A stretch of 62,007 nucleotides of DNA from an uncultured Candidatus Poseidoniales archaeon. GTDB lineage: Archaea; Thermoplasmatota; Poseidoniia; Poseidoniales; Thalassarchaeaceae. The DNA is taken from positions 1-62,007 of the forward strand of contig CACGIM010000003.1 of assembly GCA_902573115.1 (NCBI GenBank), in the 5' to 3' direction. The notes under the pieces are model-generated. The model did not search any database and had not been told where the DNA came from. It saw nothing but the letters and a program-made list of their open reading frames with translations. A program made the translations under genes and the position numbers. Shown here piece after piece: positions 30,394 through 39,357 of the stretch (within the stretch, counting starts at the first letter, position 1; the number at the start of each line of letters is the position of its first letter).

Positions 30394-30981
30394 GTGGCAG
30401 TCAAAAGCTCGACCAAAAAAAGACTAATCGAACTAGGAATTCCTGAAGATCACGCACACAAACTCGCGGATGATGCCAACTTGGACACCATTAAAAGAAT
30501 GGCAAGAGAACAAGTCGCAAAGAAGGTCGGTGTCGAGGATGGCTCTGCAGAGCTTGACCTTATTATGTCAGTGATTAGCGAACACGTTGGCTCCAGGAAG
30601 AGGACCAAGAGCAATCGCATCACCATATCTAGAAAAGCGCTGTTGGAAGAGGATATTCCCCGAGGAGAATTCAGGTTTAATGTTTTGAATCACGAACTAG
30701 TACCCCATCATGAGTTAGTTCCAATTGAATCCGAGGCCGATATATTGGAACCATGGGACTTGCGGACAGACGATGCATTCGGAACAGATAGACTTGCTAA
30801 GGAATTACTCCCCAAGATTTTGATAACCGACCCTGCTATCCAAGCTATCAAAGAAATGGAAGAGATAGACAATGAAGAGCTTCCAGCAGGTTGGCTCACC
30901 AATAGAGTTGTAAAAATTGAACGATACAGCAGATCTGCGGGAAGTTCTACCGCATATCGACTAATAGTAGAGAGTACCTGA
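30394..30981 (+). CDS. rpoH: RNA polymerase subunit H (Rpo5) with about 95 aa N-terminal extension
   Basis: FNVLNHELVPHHE, LPKILITDPAI, VVKIERYSRSAG...YRLIV; first gene of the rpo operon. Confidence 0.9.
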   Translation: MAVKSSTKKRLIELGIPEDHAHKLADDANLDTIKRMAREQVAKKVGVEDGSAELDLIMSVISEHVGSRKRTKSNRITISRKALLEEDIPRGEFRFNVLNHELVPHHELVPIESEADILEPWDLRTDDAFGTDRLAKELLPKILITDPAIQAIKEMEEIDNEELPAGWLTNRVVKIERYSRSAGSSTAYRLIVEST

Positions 30982-30992
30982 TCGGAGATGTA

Positions 30993-33900
30993 ATGATGAA
31001 AGAAATAGTAGAGAGTTACTTCAAGCAAAGAAGCCTAGTCAACCATCAGCTGATGTCATACAATGACTGCATACCAGTCGGAGATGGAAAGGAAAGCAGA
31101 ATGGAAAGAATCGTCAGGAATATCAAGATAGGTACTGATGAGAATATGGATGATGATCAGGGAGGCCTAGTTAAACTGGATCTCTTAGACAAAGAAATTG
31201 TAGTCCGACTAAAAAACCTTAGACTCGGAAAACCTACAATAAAGGAGGCAAATGGGGCAGAGCATCCGGCTACGCCATTGGAGTGCAGGCTAAGAAAGCT
31301 GACCTACTTTTCACCGGTATTCCTCGACTTCAAGATTTTCCGAGACGATCTTCCTCCTTCTCCTGGTTCAGAAATGGGCTTCCAAGAGGAGAAGAGTGTT
31401 CACATCGGTAATCTTCCAATAATGGTTAGATCTGCACGATGCAACCTTCATCACAACCATATTGACGAGAATAGTAAGCTATCGCCCGAAACTAACGGAG
31501 AAGACTCTGAAAGATACACAAAACTACTGAGGAAGTCTGGCGAAGATCCATTGGACCCTGGTGGTTATTTCATAATCAACGGAACTGAAAGAGTGCTAAT
31601 CTCAATGGAGGACCTTGCACCTAACAGGGTGACTGTCGAGAAGAACAAGAAATACGCACACGAGACTCAGGTCGCAAAGATATTCTCCCAAAAGGACGGA
31701 GTTAGGAAACCTCTCAATGTCGAGAAAAGAAGGGATGGCATGCTCATGGTCAAGATTCCCAGCGCCGGGACAACACCGGTTCCATTAGTTCTACTAATGA
31801 GAGCTCTCGGTGTGGAGAACGACAGGGAAATTTTTGCCTCTATCGCCGGCCCACCAGAGGCAATGAAATTCACTGTGGCGAATCTAAACGATTTGAGGGA
31901 CAATGAGGAATATGGGGTGGACACTTCCGAAGAGGCTTTAGCATGGCTAGAAAAGAAATTTGCTGCAGGCCAACAGAAAGAATACCGAGAATCTAGAATC
32001 CAGAATCTTCTGGACAACGAGCTCCTGCCTCACTTGGGGTCCGATTTCGATAATCGATTGAAGAAAGCTATTTTCCTTGGTAGAATAGCCAGACAGGTGC
32101 TTGAAATGGCAATCAAGGACAAGGATCCCAATGACAAAGACCACTACGCAAACAAGAGAGTCAGGCTTGCTGGTGATCTGGTTGAGGACCTATTCAGAGT
32201 GAGCCTTCAGCAATTGGCCAGGGATCTAAAGTATCAGCTGGAAAGGCATCACAACAGGAAGAGGGAGCTCAGAATATCCTCCTGCCTGAGGCCAGATGTT
32301 CTCACCACGAAAATCATGCATGCACTGGCAACCGGCAACTGGGTGGGTGGTAGATCAGGAGTTAGTCAACTCCTTGACAGGACAACATACCTATCCGCTC
32401 TTTCACATTTAAGGAGGGTCACTAGCCCCCTTGTTAGGAGCCAGCCACACTTCGAGGCACGTGACCTTCATCCAACTCAATGGGGCAGGTTATGTCCAAA
32501 TGAGACTCCTGAAGGTCAAAATTGTGGTTTAGTGAAGAATGGTGCTCAGATGATAGACGTCTCTGAGGAAGTACCCGAGGTAGATGTGAAGGCACTCCTG
32601 AAAGAAGCAGGAGTAGATGACGATCCAGACGGATGGGCAGACGGTTCGAGGATTCACGTCAATGGTGACATTTTCGGACTGCACAAGAGACCTCACAAGC
32701 TAGTCACTCAGTTCAAAAGAAGACGTAGATCGGGGAGAATTAGACCAGAGGTCAGTGTAAGGCACGACTTGGAGAACAGGGACGTCTACATCAACACAGA
32801 CAGAGGGAGGATGCTAAGGCCACTTCTCATAATTGACCACGGTAGCCTGCAAATTACCAAGATGCACTTGGATGGTCTGCGCAATGGTGAAATTACATTT
32901 TCAGACTTAGTATCTGGCGGAGTTGTTGAGTGGGTCGATGCTGAGGAAGAAGAAGATCTTCTAATTGCGCCAAGGCCTTTTGACCTACCAGCTCTTTCTC
33001 CCAAGCACAAAAGACCGATTAATCCCTCAATGGTGGAATGGACCAACCTTGGTGAGCATGGAATTTCACATGCTAAGTTGCTTGCCGAAGTAAAGATGCC
33101 GAATGGCGAAACCAAGACCGAAAAAATTGAAGTCCCACTAAATTACTATCAAGAAAAAATCGACTCGCTAAAGAGGAAGGAAAAGAAGGCAAACACGGTA
33201 TTAGTTTACACCCACGTAGAGATTGACCCACAGCTCATTTTGGGGGTATGCGCTTCACTTGTCCCTTACCCAGAGCACAACTCAACTCCCAGGGTTACTG
33301 GTGGGACTGCAATGGTCAAGCAGAGCCTTGGAGTATCTTCATCTAACTTCAGATTAAGGCCCGACACAAGGGCACATGTGATGCATTATCCTCAGAGATC
33401 AATCGTTGGAACAAGGGCCATGAAGTCCACTAACTTCGACGAGAGGCCGGGCGGACAGAATCTCGTGGTTGCAATAGTCAGTCACCACGGATACAACATG
33501 CAGGATGCTGTGATAATGAACAGAGCATCTGTGGAGAGGGCAATGGGAAGATCAGCGTTCATCAGGACATACAATGCCGAAAACAAAAGGTTTCCCGGGG
33601 GCCAGGAGGAAAGAATAGAGGTCCCGGGAACAGGGCTTGATGAAATCAAGGGGCTAAAATCATGGGACTCATATTCTCACCTAGAAAGGGACGGACTCCC
33701 CGTTCCTGAGACAGAACTTACTAGCGAAGAGGGAGGAAGGTCAATACTAGTCGGAAAGACAAGCCCCCCTCGATTCCTAGAAGAAGCTCATGGGGCCTTC
33801 CTACAAGCACAAGAAAGAAGGGAATCATCAATGCTTGTTAGGCACGGTGAAAAGGGTTGGGTAGACAATGTATATGTCACAGAATCTCTCGATTCAGGCA

Positions 33901-34688
33901 GACTAGTCAGAATTACTCTAAGAACAAATAAGATTCCGGAGCTCGGGGACAAGTTTGCTAGCAGGCACGGACAAAAAGGAATCATAGGTAGGCTTGTCGA
34001 ACAAGAGGATATGCCATTTACAGAAGATGGGGTGATCCCTGATCTGTTGATTAATCCGCATGCCATACCTTCCCGGATGACAGTCGCTCACGTTCTAGAA
34101 ATGATCGGAGCAAAGGTTGGATCAATGGAAGGTAGGAGAATAGATGGAACGGCTTTTACTGGAGAAAAAGAAGAGTCACTAAGGTCTGGATTATTGAGAT
34201 CTGGATTAAAGCACACAGGAAGAGAATCCATGGTGAATGGAGAAACTGGAGAAGCATTTCCGGTGGATACCTTTGTCGGGGTGATATACTACCAGAGACT
34301 ACATCACCTAGTCAGCAGCAAGCTTCACGCAAGAAGCAGAGGCAGGGTCCAAATCCTTACTAGACAGCCAACTGAGGGAAGGGCTAGACAAGGTGGTCTT
34401 AGATTTGGAGAAATGGAAAGGGACTGCCTCATTTCACATGGTGCGTCAATGGTGATTAAAGACAGATTACTTGATGAATCAGACGGTTGGAATCTAATGG
34501 TATGCAACACCCCACGTTGCGGCCACATTGCCTATTACGATTGGAAGAGGAGGACTAGCGTATGCCCTGTGTGTGGGGATAGGGCAGACGTTCACTCGGT
34601 ACAAACATCTTACGCATTCAAGCTTCTCCTTGATGAGATGAAAAGTCTTGGTGTTGCTATGAGATTAGAACTGGAGGACAGAAGATGA
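30993..34688 (+). CDS. rpoB: RNA polymerase subunit B (unsplit)
   Basis: GGYFIING, ETPEGQNCGL, GDKFASRHGQKG, GLRFGEMERD. Confidence 0.99.
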   Translation: MMKEIVESYFKQRSLVNHQLMSYNDCIPVGDGKESRMERIVRNIKIGTDENMDDDQGGLVKLDLLDKEIVVRLKNLRLGKPTIKEANGAEHPATPLECRLRKLTYFSPVFLDFKIFRDDLPPSPGSEMGFQEEKSVHIGNLPIMVRSARCNLHHNHIDENSKLSPETNGEDSERYTKLLRKSGEDPLDPGGYFIINGTERVLISMEDLAPNRVTVEKNKKYAHETQVAKIFSQKDGVRKPLNVEKRRDGMLMVKIPSAGTTPVPLVLLMRALGVENDREIFASIAGPPEAMKFTVANLNDLRDNEEYGVDTSEEALAWLEKKFAAGQQKEYRESRIQNLLDNELLPHLGSDFDNRLKKAIFLGRIARQVLEMAIKDKDPNDKDHYANKRVRLAGDLVEDLFRVSLQQLARDLKYQLERHHNRKRELRISSCLRPDVLTTKIMHALATGNWVGGRSGVSQLLDRTTYLSALSHLRRVTSPLVRSQPHFEARDLHPTQWGRLCPNETPEGQNCGLVKNGAQMIDVSEEVPEVDVKALLKEAGVDDDPDGWADGSRIHVNGDIFGLHKRPHKLVTQFKRRRRSGRIRPEVSVRHDLENRDVYINTDRGRMLRPLLIIDHGSLQITKMHLDGLRNGEITFSDLVSGGVVEWVDAEEEEDLLIAPRPFDLPALSPKHKRPINPSMVEWTNLGEHGISHAKLLAEVKMPNGETKTEKIEVPLNYYQEKIDSLKRKEKKANTVLVYTHVEIDPQLILGVCASLVPYPEHNSTPRVTGGTAMVKQSLGVSSSNFRLRPDTRAHVMHYPQRSIVGTRAMKSTNFDERPGGQNLVVAIVSHHGYNMQDAVIMNRASVERAMGRSAFIRTYNAENKRFPGGQEERIEVPGTGLDEIKGLKSWDSYSHLERDGLPVPETELTSEEGGRSILVGKTSPPRFLEEAHGAFLQAQERRESSMLVRHGEKGWVDNVYVTESLDSGRLVRITLRTNKIPELGDKFASRHGQKGIIGRLVEQEDMPFTEDGVIPDLLINPHAIPSRMTVAHVLEMIGAKVGSMEGRRIDGTAFTGEKEESLRSGLLRSGLKHTGRESMVNGETGEAFPVDTFVGVIYYQRLHHLVSSKLHARSRGRVQILTRQPTEGRARQGGLRFGEMERDCLISHGASMVIKDRLLDESDGWNLMVCNTPRCGHIAYYDWKRRTSVCPVCGDRADVHSVQTSYAFKLLLDEMKSLGVAMRLELEDRR

Positions 34689-37600
34689 GTACACGAGACG
34701 CAGCCAAAATTCCAAAAAGGATAGACTCAATCAGGTTTACCCTAATGGATCCAAATGAAATTAGGAAGATGTCATCTGTTGAGGTAAAGACAGCTGATAC
34801 CTACAAAGATGATGGCCACGCTTTCAAACAAGGCCTGATGGATCCAAAGATGGGCGTAATAGACCCTGGAATTAGGTGCGAAACCTGTGGCAACAAACAC
34901 GAGGAGTGCCCCAGCCACTTCGGCCATATTGCACTAGAGCTACCAGTTTTGCACATAGGATTCTCTGGACTGATCAAGACATGCCTGAAGTCTACATGCA
35001 ATACCTGCAGTAAGGTCCTACTTCTGGATGCTCCAGAGACACACCCCACCGATCCAGAAAAGTCTGAACAGGACTATTACAGAGACAAGGTCAACGACAT
35101 CATACTCAAACACGGAGTAGGTGGCAGAGAATTCAAGAAGATAATCAAGGATATCGAAAACATATGCGCCGGCGCCAAAAGGACAATTTGCATGCACTGT
35201 GGAGCTGAGCAGGGCAAGATAATTCTAGATAAGCCAACTACTTTCAAGGAGAAGAAGGCCGACAAAGGTGAGCACAAGCTAAACGCCAGAGACATAAGGG
35301 AGTGGATGGAAAAGATACCAGACGAGCATCTAATATTCGTCGGTATGGAGAAAGACGTAAGTCGTCCGGAATGGACAATCATGAAGGTTCTGCCAGTACC
35401 TCCAATAACGGTACGACCCTCAATCACATTGGAGAGCGGGGATAGATCTGAAGATGACCTTACTCACAAACTCGTCGACGTTCTTAGGATAAATCAAAGA
35501 TTAAGGGAAAACAGAGACTCAGGAGCACCTCAGCTAATCGTTGAGGACCTATGGGAACTTCTACAATATCATTGCACGACGTACTTTGACAACCAGACTA
35601 GCGGAATACCCCCTGCGAGACACAGATCAGGAAGACCACTCAAGACCTTGTCTCAGAGGTTAAAAGGTAAGGAAGGAAGATTCCGGAGCAATCTATCAGG
35701 TAAGAGGGTTAACTTTTGTGCCCGTACGGTGATAAGCCCTGACCCTAATCTTGGAATTAATGAGGTAGGCGTACCCGTTAGGACAGCGAAAGAACTTACT
35801 GTCCCGATCAGGGCCACTAGTAGAAATAGGGAGCAACTAAGGCAGATGATCCTTAGGGGTCCCGATGTTCATCCTGGTGTTAACTACATTATCAGGGGAG
35901 ATAGATTTAGAGTCAGAATTACTGACCGAACGAAGTTTATTTGGGCAGGCTTCAGATGTTTGAATCCGGATTGCCATTCTGGAACGGAAGAGGAACCTTA
36001 CACGGGCTACCGACCAGATCTCAACGAAGTGCTCCCGGCTCCTAATTTCCTCCCAGGTCTCGTTCTCAAGGAACAAATGAGGAGAGACCCAATTACCGAT
36101 GACCTGGTACCCGAGTGGAATGTAAATTTGGAATCAACCCTCTGTAATCTCAAAGGAGAGGACGATACGGGGAAGTCACTGCCAGAAGATAATCCAGATT
36201 CGGTCATCCATCATCGCTGGAAGTGGCAGGTCGAAAACCCTGATGAGTACCTTCCAGAGCACTTGGAAGTCAGTTGCCCTCACTGTGGTAGCCCTGAAAT
36301 TGAGGATGAACACGGGAACGTCTATCCAACAGATGTCGAAGATAGGTTGAGCACCTACGACAGGGATGGCAACCCGAGGCCCGGTGTAGTGGTCGAGAGG
36401 CACCTAATCGATGGGGACGTTGCAATATTCAACAGGCAACCTTCACTTCATAGAATGTCTATGTTGGTACACGAAATCCGAGTCATGGAAGGGAAGACCT
36501 TCAGATTCAATCTTGCAGATTGCACCCCCTATAACGCCGATTTTGATGGGGACGAAATGAATCTGCACGTAATCCAGAGCGAGGAAGCCCGAGCCGAGGC
36601 CAGGATCCTCATGCGAGTTCAGGAACATATTATCTCCCCAAGATACGGTGGTAGCGTCATAGGAGGAATCCACGATCACATCACTGGAGCTTACCTCCTA
36701 ACCCATGGCGAAGCGTTCCTCCCGCAACAAGCTGCAATGGATGTCTTGAGCTCTATTGGATGGGAAGGCGACCTCCCCAAATTAGTAGAAAGGAACGGAA
36801 CTTCGGGATACTTGGGGAACGACATTTTCAGCCTCTTAGTTAGTGGTGGATTTAGTCTCAATTTCAAGAACAGGGCAGGAGAAGAGGTACACGTAACCGA
36901 GGGTGAGGTTTCCGGCTCTATCGACAAGAGGGGCATTGGGGCTGAAGATGGTAGACTCCTAGACGCGGTAGTGCAAACACACGGCACTACCACTGGCGCC
37001 GATTTCATCAACAAAATGACCAAGATGACAATAGCAATTTGTACTGCTTTGGGATTCACGACGGGTATCGATGACGAGGACCTTCCCTTGGCGGCGAAAG
37101 AAGAAATCGACAGGATAAACGCTCAGGCAAGCTCCGATGTTGATGCCGAGCTAGAGAAGTTTGGAAAGGATGGTAGGAGGTATGACGCCAGACCCGGTAG
37201 AACACCTTTGGAGACATTAGAGGAGAATATTTTGACAATTCTGGACTCAGCAAAGGCAGAGACCGGAAACGTTGCAAAAGCTCAACTTGAGGATCTTAAC
37301 TCAGCAGTCCTAATGGCCACATCCGGAGCAAGAGGTTCGATGGACAACCTTGCCATGATGGCCGGATCGATTGGTCAGCCAAAGGTAAGAGGTAAGCGTC
37401 TGGAGAGAGGCTATCAGGAGAGAGTTCTTTCCCACTTCCCCCGCAAGGTCAAGGGTGCTAAAGAAAAGGGATTCGTCTCATCATCATTCAAGAAGGGACT
37501 CGAACCAACTGAGTTCTTCATGCTATCAGTTTCAGGAAGAGAATCACTTGTTGATACCGCTGTAAGGACTAGCAAGTCAGGTTACATGCAAAGGAGACTG

Positions 37601-37780
37601 ATCAACGCTATGGATGATCTAAAAGTTGCTAATGACGACATGGCATCTGTACGAAATACGGCTAATCGGATCATTCAATTCGAATACGGCGAGGATGGAA
37701 CTGACCCCGCAAGAAGCAGGAAGGGAAGCCCATTCGACGTAGATCAAGTCCTCAGTGACGCCCTAGGGGGTGGAAAATAA
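34685..37780 (+). CDS. rpoA1: RNA polymerase subunit A' with Cys-rich insertion
   Basis: [44 protein letters not shown]. Confidence 0.99.
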
Positions 37781-39357
37781 TGGTAGTAAAGAGTGCCACT
37801 AAGAAGAAGCTAATGGATCTCGGTATAGAAGAAGAGTACGCTCACAAGCTAGCAGACGATAGAAAGTGGGACGACGTCAAGGGACTTTCGCCCGGCCAAA
37901 TAGCTCAAATCTGTGGGATTGATTCTGGGACGTCGCAAAAAATTCACGAGGTCATGTCCACCTCTGCTAAGTCATCTAGGTCCTCTGCTGCTAGCACTGA
38001 GAAAACAATAATCAGGAGGAGAGCTGCTAGGACTCGGAGAATAAAAAGATCCCTTCCCTTGCAGCCTTATGATGAAGAATCGAAGAAGGCTCAGATTGTA
38101 AGAGATATCGACAGCGAGGATGAGATGTACGTTCAGCTATCCAAGGCAGCAAGTGACTCCAAATCTACAATGACTCCGAAGATGATTGACGAACTTGTAA
38201 AAGGTCTACAAAAGAGAGGTGAAAAGAAGATATCGGCCGCAGCCGCTAAGAAAATAATCAAATCCGCTTCTCACTTTTATGATGAGGCAAGAGCAGTACC
38301 ACACGAGGCCGTGGGAATAACAACCGCCCAATCAATTGGTGAGCCGGGAACTCAAATGACGATGAGGACCTTCCACTACGCTGGTGTGGCGACAGTGAAC
38401 GTCACACAGGGACTCCCCAGAATCATAGAGATCGTCGATGCTAGGAAGGTTCCAAAGACCCCGACCATGATAATCTACATGGATGAAAAGAACTCAAAGG
38501 GTAAGCCACTAAAGACGAACGAGAAACTAGTCAGGGACATCGCGGCGGCGATAGAGACAACAACTGCCATGGACATAGCAACCATAGACGTTGATGTTGC
38601 GCAGAGAAACATTAGCCTGCAATTGAACAACTCTAACATGAAACTAAAGAATATGAGTGGAGCAGAAGTCAGGGACAAGCTTTCTCGGGCCCTTAGGCTA
38701 TATGTTCAGGCAGACAATGAGGACAAACCGAAGTCTCTTAGAATCATCCCGGGTGTTTCCAAGGAGGATGACTTGGCTAGTCTAGCCTCTGACCCGCCTA
38801 CATACACAGCACTTCTTCAATTGGAGGACAAGATCAAGAAGCTCAGGCTAAAGGGCCTACCGGGAATATCCCGAGCCACAGTTCAAGGGCCAACCTCTGA
38901 AACTGGAGAATACTATATCTCGACAATTGGATCTAACCTGGCGAAAGTAAGTGAGTACGATGGAATCGACAGGTCCAGAACCTACACAAACAATATCAAC
39001 GAAATTCATGACTATCTGGGGATCGAAGCAGCGAGACAGGCAATAATCAATGAAATGTGGGACACATTAGAAGGCGCTGGACTAGATGTCGATGTCAGGC
39101 ACCTCATCATGGTATCCGATGTCATGACAACCGGTGGAGAGGTAAGGGCTATCGGTAGGCACGGAGTCAGCGGAACGAAACACTCAATCCTGGCTAGGTC
39201 GGCTTTCGAGGTGACAGTAACGCACCTTCTAAAGGCCGGTGTTATAGGTGAAAGAGACATGCTTTCGGGAGTCACGGAGAACATCATTGTTGGACAACCT
39301 GTGGCATTAGGGACTGGAAGTGTAGAGCTATTCTACATACCCGAAGAAAATAACTGA
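37780..39357 (+). CDS. rpoA2: RNA polymerase subunit A'' with long N-terminal extension
   Basis: [43 protein letters not shown]. Confidence 0.98.

Follow-up and report, generated by a model that had tools for sequence, protein, structure and literature searches.

Throughout the order Poseidoniales (Marine Group II), the RNA polymerase (RNAP) subunit Rpo1N, encoded by rpoA', carries what is very probably a real, conserved and likely zinc-binding domain inserted in the dock. The domain was analyzed in an uncultured Candidatus Poseidoniales archaeon of the Thalassarchaeaceae, on a stretch of 62,007 nucleotides (contig CACGIM010000003.1 of assembly GCA_902573115.1; the window refers to this whole stretch of analyzed DNA), in which rpoA' occupies positions 34685..37780 of the + strand and encodes 1031 amino acids (aa). 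The Poseidoniales are globally abundant ocean archaea that are still uncultured, and the whole order carries this 139-residue domain of unrecognized fold on the highly conserved surface of the dock. To our knowledge, lineage-specific insertion domains of RNAP are well described for bacteria and hardly at all for archaea, and no description of this insert was found in the literature searched.

Position of the insert within the dock

The host gene was recognized from the list of open reading frames, from matches to the five Rpb1 domains of Pfam (domains 1–5) and from the alignment of its product, RpoA', to Rpo1N of Pyrococcus furiosus (8cro_A) at an expect value (E) of 1e-273. This alignment breaks at query residue 418 (residue 400 in P. 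furiosus) and restarts at query residue 567 (residue 409), leaving about 140 aa without a counterpart; the alignment to yeast Rpb1 restarts at residue 429, and Pfam matches Rpb1 domain 2 in two parts, divided at the insert. Alignments of this kind to polymerases of solved structure, both archaeal and eukaryotic, put the insert within the Rpo1N dock element itself, between the dock helix and the strand that runs to the FNRQPS motif.

A preliminary description of this DNA, prepared from the sequence alone, had reported a Cys-rich insertion of about 140 aa at 35942-36380, near the dock. The extra length holds up: the flagged stretch is in frame and amounts to 146 aa, the Rpo1N alignment shows a matching gap, and the distance from the flanking motif PGxNY to FNRQPS is 191 aa in this genome versus 51 aa in the nine RpoA' proteins compared from elsewhere in the phylum. 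The bounds can be narrowed, with the insert proper spanning aa 424-562 (35954..36370, + strand; ~139 aa), and its location, correctly assigned to the dock region, can be sharpened from near the dock to within it. The upstream flank (aa 397-423; 35873..35953, + strand) comprises a beta hairpin and the dock helix, which the alignments and the secondary structure of the models identify as common to all archaea. The downstream flank (aa 563-587; 36371..36445, + strand) belongs to the dock and active-site region, is where the Pyrococcus and yeast alignments resume, and ends in FNRQPS. The catalytic NADFDGD motif (aa 617-623; 36533..36553, + strand), read from the translation and invariant in the alignment, follows approximately 55 aa 3' of the insert.

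Distribution among the Thermoplasmatota

The spacing between PGxNY and FNRQPS separates the order from its relatives. In 51 Poseidoniales genomes it ranges from 179 to 194 aa, while nine RpoA' proteins from the sister families and other families of the Thermoplasmatota all have exactly 51 aa, and only 27 nucleotides (nt) lie between the two flank matches in the sister-lineage genes. The comparison covered the Thermoplasmatota and the species represented in the PDB; spacing was read where both motifs were found, and five other loci without a match to the motif expressions were left out.

A search of whole genomes using the insert alone as a query returned the same division. The insert was recovered from the three families of the order in 40/40 (f1), 2/2 (f2) and 63/65 (f3) genomes, with one of the two f3 misses (G086) explained by a contig break within the gene, and was not found in the 45 genomes of the two other families in the class (f4, 0/43; f5, 0/2). 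Across 201 genomes of the phylum, those outside the order matched through the flanks only and the insert was not found in them. Among named species genomes 436 loci were matched, and the best 80 of the 436 all belong to metagenome-assembled or single-cell genomes labeled Candidatus Poseidoniales, Thalassarchaeaceae or Marine Group II. An insert profile run against five Poseidoniales genomes matched RpoA' alone, with one copy per genome and no paralogue.

Because the insert is present throughout the three Poseidoniales families and was not found in the sister lineages, the distribution indicates that it was gained once on the Poseidoniales stem and has been retained since. The lineage specificity suggested in the preliminary description is thereby upheld for both the 45 sister-family genomes and the sampled remainder of the phylum. 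For the Poseidoniales, the insert provides a clean molecular synapomorphy, and the use of RpoA' as a phylogenetic marker needs to handle it, as it contributes about 140 columns that are unalignable outside of the order.

Conservation, selection and charge

An alignment of 46 insert sequences from the three families, with roughly 50-60% identity between families, contains 28 invariant positions. Among these are G-F-R-C-x-N-x2-C, APNFxPG, T-x2-N-L-x-G, one Trp, C-P-H-C-x-S and D-R-L-x-T-x-D. In this genome, the first Cys knuckle (C425-x4-C430, of the form CxNPxC; 35957..35974, + strand) lies at the base of the insert and is followed by the APNFLPG block (aa 452-458; 36038..36058, + strand). The second knuckle (C531-P-H-C534, CPHC followed by G-S-P; 36275..36286, + strand) precedes the block VEDRLSTxD (aa 551-559; 36335..36361, + strand), in which D553, R554, L555, T557 and D559 are invariant and which returns the chain to the dock.

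The preliminary description had named beforehand, as a possible refutation, a lack of conservation of the cysteines. All four (C425, C430, C531 and C534) are kept in 131/131 loci, representing 117 distinct sequences, and the one apparent exception is a Ser replacing the Pro within a knuckle, with the Cys intact. Both motifs singled out at the time, CLNPDC and CPHC, are present in the translation within the flagged stretch. The label "Cys-rich" is overstated, as there are five Cys in about 140 aa and the fifth, C487, is not conserved. Similarly, of the further His residues that had been mentioned, the one inside CPHC is invariant and the others are not.

At the codon level (10 usable pairs), the median ratio of nonsynonymous to synonymous substitution rates (dN/dS, omega) was 0.039 for the insert versus 0.014 for the rest of the gene. 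With an omega of this size, the insert is, as judged from the codon comparisons, translated and strongly constrained, and it evolves about three times faster than the core. All 46 inserts are acidic, with net charges from -10 to -21 and isoelectric points (pI) from 4.2 to 5.1; the insert in this genome has a net charge of -21 and a pI of 4.3, and the remaining 890 residues of its RpoA' have a net charge of 0 and a pI of 7.35.

These observations bear directly on a possible origin of the insert as a tolerated, non-functional remnant of a mobile element, such as a degenerate intein or homing endonuclease. Inteins are known in archaeal RNAP subunits and the insert is a discrete in-frame block, as such a remnant would be. 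Conversely, no Hint, intein, LAGLIDADG or HNH match was obtained from Pfam at E<=1 with either the whole RpoA' or the insert, and neither the translation nor the alignment contains a His-Asn followed by Cys, Ser or Thr, in agreement with the earlier statement that an intein-like junction is lacking and settling the homology check that had accompanied it. The distribution is order-wide and vertical, not sporadic, with the insert in essentially all members of the order and not found elsewhere in the phylum as sampled, and an omega of ~0.04 with 28 invariant positions at ~50% identity is poorly suited to a non-functional remnant. The mobile-element origin is effectively excluded because the insert lacks intein features, is vertically distributed and is under strong purifying selection.

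Predicted fold and zinc site

AlphaFold2 modeling of the segment containing the dock and the insert gave the insert a predicted local distance difference test score (pLDDT) of ~85-93. The predicted fold is mixed alpha/beta, with two long strands and three helices, and a small sheet of three strands follows the CPHC knuckle. An independent, full-length AlphaFold2 model of RpoA' (52 sequences) reproduced identical insert elements at pLDDT 80-90. As modeled, the insert is an autonomous folded domain under selection.

The first knuckle stands at the start of the insert and the second about 100 residues further on, near its end, and the natural reading of this arrangement is that the four Cys constitute one structural Cys4 Zn(II) site that joins the two ends of the domain at the base. 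The putative zinc binding put forward in the preliminary description thus finds backing in the two knuckles and their complete retention. At CPHC, the zinc-ribbon matches from Pfam stayed below the cut-off of 27, with scores of 15.7 bits for Zn_ribbon_3 and 15.4 bits for Zn_ribbon_PaaD. It should be noted that a conserved Cys4 site could also serve as a redox- or metal-sensing switch, in which Zn or Fe would be bound reversibly and oxidative stress in sunlit surface water would reshape the dock and thereby adjust transcription. The four Cys are invariant, the second knuckle resembles the CPxCG of rubredoxin (CPHCG), and the Poseidoniales live in the oxidizing photic zone. Structural Cys4 zinc sites are nevertheless common in RNAP subunits and do not require a role in sensing, and a switch of this kind is considered quite improbable.

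The insert is without a detectable relative in sequence or fold. An exhaustive phmmer search of 1.84 billion representative proteins returned 26 hits, which were fragments of RpoA' save for one, and the ESM Atlas returned the RpoA' clusters themselves and nothing else. The single outlier, an insect C2H2 zinc-finger repeat protein (P0142), matched repeatedly to the knuckle context only and was rejected as spurious. An insert-only profile compared with all PDB chain sequences, A190 of RNA polymerase I (Pol I) included, yielded nothing below E 0.17. With the confident insert model, the best Foldseek match in the PDB had an E of 0.7, and the best among the viral models of BFVD had an E of 0.16; VIA-align against 48,161 chains reached a best Z of 2.1, and none of the re-examined Foldseek candidates had a Z>=2. 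These null fold searches are no proof of a new fold.

The zinc-ribbon and zinc-knuckle modules of the transcription machinery (the ribbon of transcription factor B (TFB), Rpo12, Spt4 and TFS) likewise have two Cys pairs, and the second pair of the insert is a classic CPxCG knuckle with short beta strands after it. Unlike in those modules, the knuckles of the insert are separated by approximately 100 residues of alpha/beta structure and the first knuckle is Cx4C. The insert reached the cut-off of no Pfam zinc-ribbon family, and the fold searches gave no structural match.

A candidate role in transcription initiation

The location of the insert bears on what it may do. The zinc ribbon of TFB, like that of its eukaryotic counterpart TFIIB, binds the dock and recruits RNAP (PMC7289017; PMC10881513). 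The RNA exits along the dock, and at a length of 12-13 nt it clashes with the B-ribbon, which leads to release of the factor (PMC7111264; PMC6212726). Outside the active center, few surfaces of archaeal and eukaryotic RNAPs are as conserved as the dock region (PMC2680338), and in eukaryotes class-specific cofactors make use of it, with dock insertions specific to A190 contacting Rrn3 in Pol I and Mediator contacting the dock of Pol II (PMC5362265).

Placed in this context, the four Cys would bind one structural Zn(II) and clamp the ends of the insert at its base, such that a rigid acidic module would project from the dock. This module could act as an extra protein-docking surface close to where the TFB ribbon binds and the RNA leaves and, because the TFB zinc ribbon lands on the dock and the nascent RNA passes along it, could alter TFB recruitment or TFB release at promoter escape. 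By analogy with the dock insertions of Pol I, the insert is probably an extra docking pad for transcription factors. The narrower proposal, that it modulates TFB-dependent initiation or promoter escape, takes up the possible effect on initiation raised in the preliminary description and is offered tentatively, as something less than an even chance.

The TFB complement of the Poseidoniales provides a candidate partner. Poseidoniales genomes encode two TFBs, designated TFB-1 and TFB-2. In this genome, TFB-1 is encoded on another contig (G000 C20; L073:1378-2382, + strand) and is 335 aa in length, with orthologues in L074-L103. Directly before the B-ribbon, TFB-1 has a tail of 22-45 aa with a median net charge of +6 in f1 and +3 in f3, and in 24/28 genomes a basic motif of the Arg-Pro-Ser-Arg type precedes the first Cys of the ribbon by ~10 residues. 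TFB-2 is canonical, with a net negative N-terminus of median 11 aa before the ribbon; TFB-2 and the TFBs of the sister order together have median tails of 11-17 aa with a net charge of -2, and the basic motif was found in 0/16 of them. The ribbon sequence of TFB-1 also differs from the ribbons of TFB-2 and the sister-order TFBs. In an unrooted maximum-likelihood tree, TFB-1 forms a clade with 100/100 support on a very long stem, and the grouping of TFB-2 with one sister-order paralogue has weak support (83/66). Judged by its sequence and tree placement, TFB-1 is a very divergent, Poseidoniales-specific paralogue. One TFB has therefore, by these comparisons, diverged sharply and gained a basic tail in the lineage that gained an acidic dock domain, an association that is correlative only.

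In its most specific version, the proposed mechanism would have the acidic module contact the basic tail of TFB-1, creating a second anchor that TFB-2 lacks. Such a contact is regarded as unlikely in this exact form. A wider formulation, in which the insert and TFB-1 would be the two halves of an order-specific second anchor that allows one polymerase to discriminate two TFBs at recruitment or escape, possibly together with extra domains on RpoH and RpoA'', is viewed with equal reserve. Should the docking pad exist, a single archaeal polymerase would have acquired paralogue-specific initiation control resembling the specialization of the eukaryotic polymerases; should the anchor for TFB-1 exist, it would be an archaeal and independently evolved counterpart of the docking of Rrn3 on the dock insertion of Pol I.

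Several points weigh against a role of the insert in TFB-dependent initiation. The same RNAP must also serve the canonical TFB-2, and the co-occurrence of the insert with TFB-1 amounts to a single phylogenetic event that carries no statistical weight. A TFB paralogue of the sister order (L104, L107 and L113; genomes G041, G043 and G046) has a Lys-rich N-terminus of 17-39 aa, and RpoA' in those genomes has no dock insert. The start codons of the TFBs are predicted. The full-length single-chain model was poor (predicted template modeling score 0.34, with large regions at pLDDT <50); the insert was its only confident part, and its position with respect to the B-ribbon site could not be taken from this model. 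Further, zinc binding by the insert is a prediction from conserved Cys, with the Pfam zinc-ribbon matches falling below cut-off. The relation of the Lys-rich sister-order paralogue to TFB-1 is left unplaced by the tree.

The same location on the dock may suit partners other than TFB. The insert might serve elongation or termination factors, and not initiation, as a platform that binds Spt4/5, the termination factor aCPSF1/FttA, a ribosome or another partner at the RNA exit, or it might shape the exit path by repelling RNA. The passage of the RNA along the dock (PMC7111264) favors this explanation, as does the character of the domain, which is conserved, folded and acidic and has nothing that ties it to TFB exclusively. 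TFB-1 has so far shown the only change that matches the lineage, and this counts against a platform for later stages of transcription, which is ranked first among the rival explanations and is still considered unlikely. Behind it are ranked, in descending order, a structural decoration of the polymerase (discussed with the operon below), the redox or metal switch and the mobile-element remnant.

Comparison with known polymerase insertions

The closest functional precedent for the proposed initiation role, by analogy, is the set of A190 dock insertions of Pol I, which are also a clade- or class-specific addition in the dock of the largest subunit and which contact a dedicated initiation factor, Rrn3 (PMC5362265). 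The two share no sequence homology, as seen from the PDB profile search (nothing below E 0.17) and the restriction of phmmer hits to RpoA' fragments. A literature search for "dock II" of A190 found nothing. The hosts differ as well: A190 belongs to eukaryotic Pol I, while the Poseidoniales insert belongs to an archaeal enzyme that is the single RNAP of the cell and for which only a candidate partner can be named. We know of no Cys4 site in the A190 insertions.

The insertions of the bacterial beta and beta' subunits (SI1-SI3; BEAN, HABAS and related domains) are likewise in-frame domains carried on universal domains of RNAP, and their occurrence tracks phylogeny (PMC11515920). They occupy other sites and fall in to recurrent fold families, whereas the Poseidoniales insert is archaeal, has the dock as its site and gave no match to a known fold; the account of the bacterial insertional domains makes no mention of the dock, zinc or the Poseidoniales (PMC11515920). 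Compared with the canonical dock of Rpb1 and Rpo1N, which is the site of the TFIIB and TFB zinc ribbon, the flanks of the insert are canonical and well-conserved elements, and the difference is confined to the insertion point, where the canonical dock has 51 aa between the flank motifs and a loop of ~9-10 aa and the Poseidoniales add ~139 aa. Insertional domains of the large RNAP subunits, catalogued at length for bacteria (PMC11515920), and dock insertions in eukaryotic Pol I are thus already known, and what is new is an archaeal, order-wide, acidic Cys4 domain in the dock with an unrecognized fold.

The polymerase operon and additional observations

The window contains an RNAP operon of the standard archaeal type, as read from the open reading frame list, with rpoH (30394-30981), rpoB (30993-34688), rpoA' and rpoA'' (37780-39357) in succession. 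The rpoA' gene overlaps both of its neighbors, rpoB at its start and rpoA'' at its stop. RpoH and RpoA'' each begin with an extra domain, the two being homologous (47% identity over 53 aa, E 9e-17), and their canonical Pfam domains begin only at aa 95 (Rpb5_C, RpoH) and aa 159 (Rpb1_5, RpoA''). Counting these extra domains together with the dock insert, at least three order-specific additions are present on this polymerase. The lineage that carries the dock domain therefore combines it with a strongly diverged TFB paralogue and with extra domains on two other RNAP subunits.

The composition of the operon is relevant to the explanation that the insert is purely a structural decoration, which would stabilize the polymerase or pack on the order-specific N-terminal extensions of RpoH and RpoA'' with no direct regulation. 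That the same operon encodes two more lineage-specific additions is in keeping with such a role, and strong conservation would fit a part in assembly. The domain stands, however, on a highly conserved functional surface (PMC2680338). Its uniformly strong acidity suggests an interaction surface over packing. Additionally, in the canonical RNAP architecture neither Rpo5 nor the A'/A'' junction lies next to the dock. A structural decoration is accordingly thought improbable, and a factor-docking surface that may influence TFB is retained as the preferred, tentative reading.

Long RpoA' frames (~1000-1150 aa) also occur elsewhere in the phylum, and the dock spacing in these is 51 aa wherever both motifs were found; the extra length therefore lies elsewhere. 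Several such frames from Thermoplasmatota outside of the Poseidoniales are ~1020-1030 aa in length with a dock spacing of 51 aa (L061, L062, L072 and related loci, from family f7 and others). Part of their excess is in-frame sequence 5' of the start codon, and true extra domains, if any, are located away from the dock. Frames of 1979, 1636 and 1601 aa cross the RpoA' dock region in the Thermoplasmatota contigs G318:C71, G269:C40 and G213:C215, respectively, and may represent fused genes for the large RNAP subunits or read-through in to a neighboring gene.

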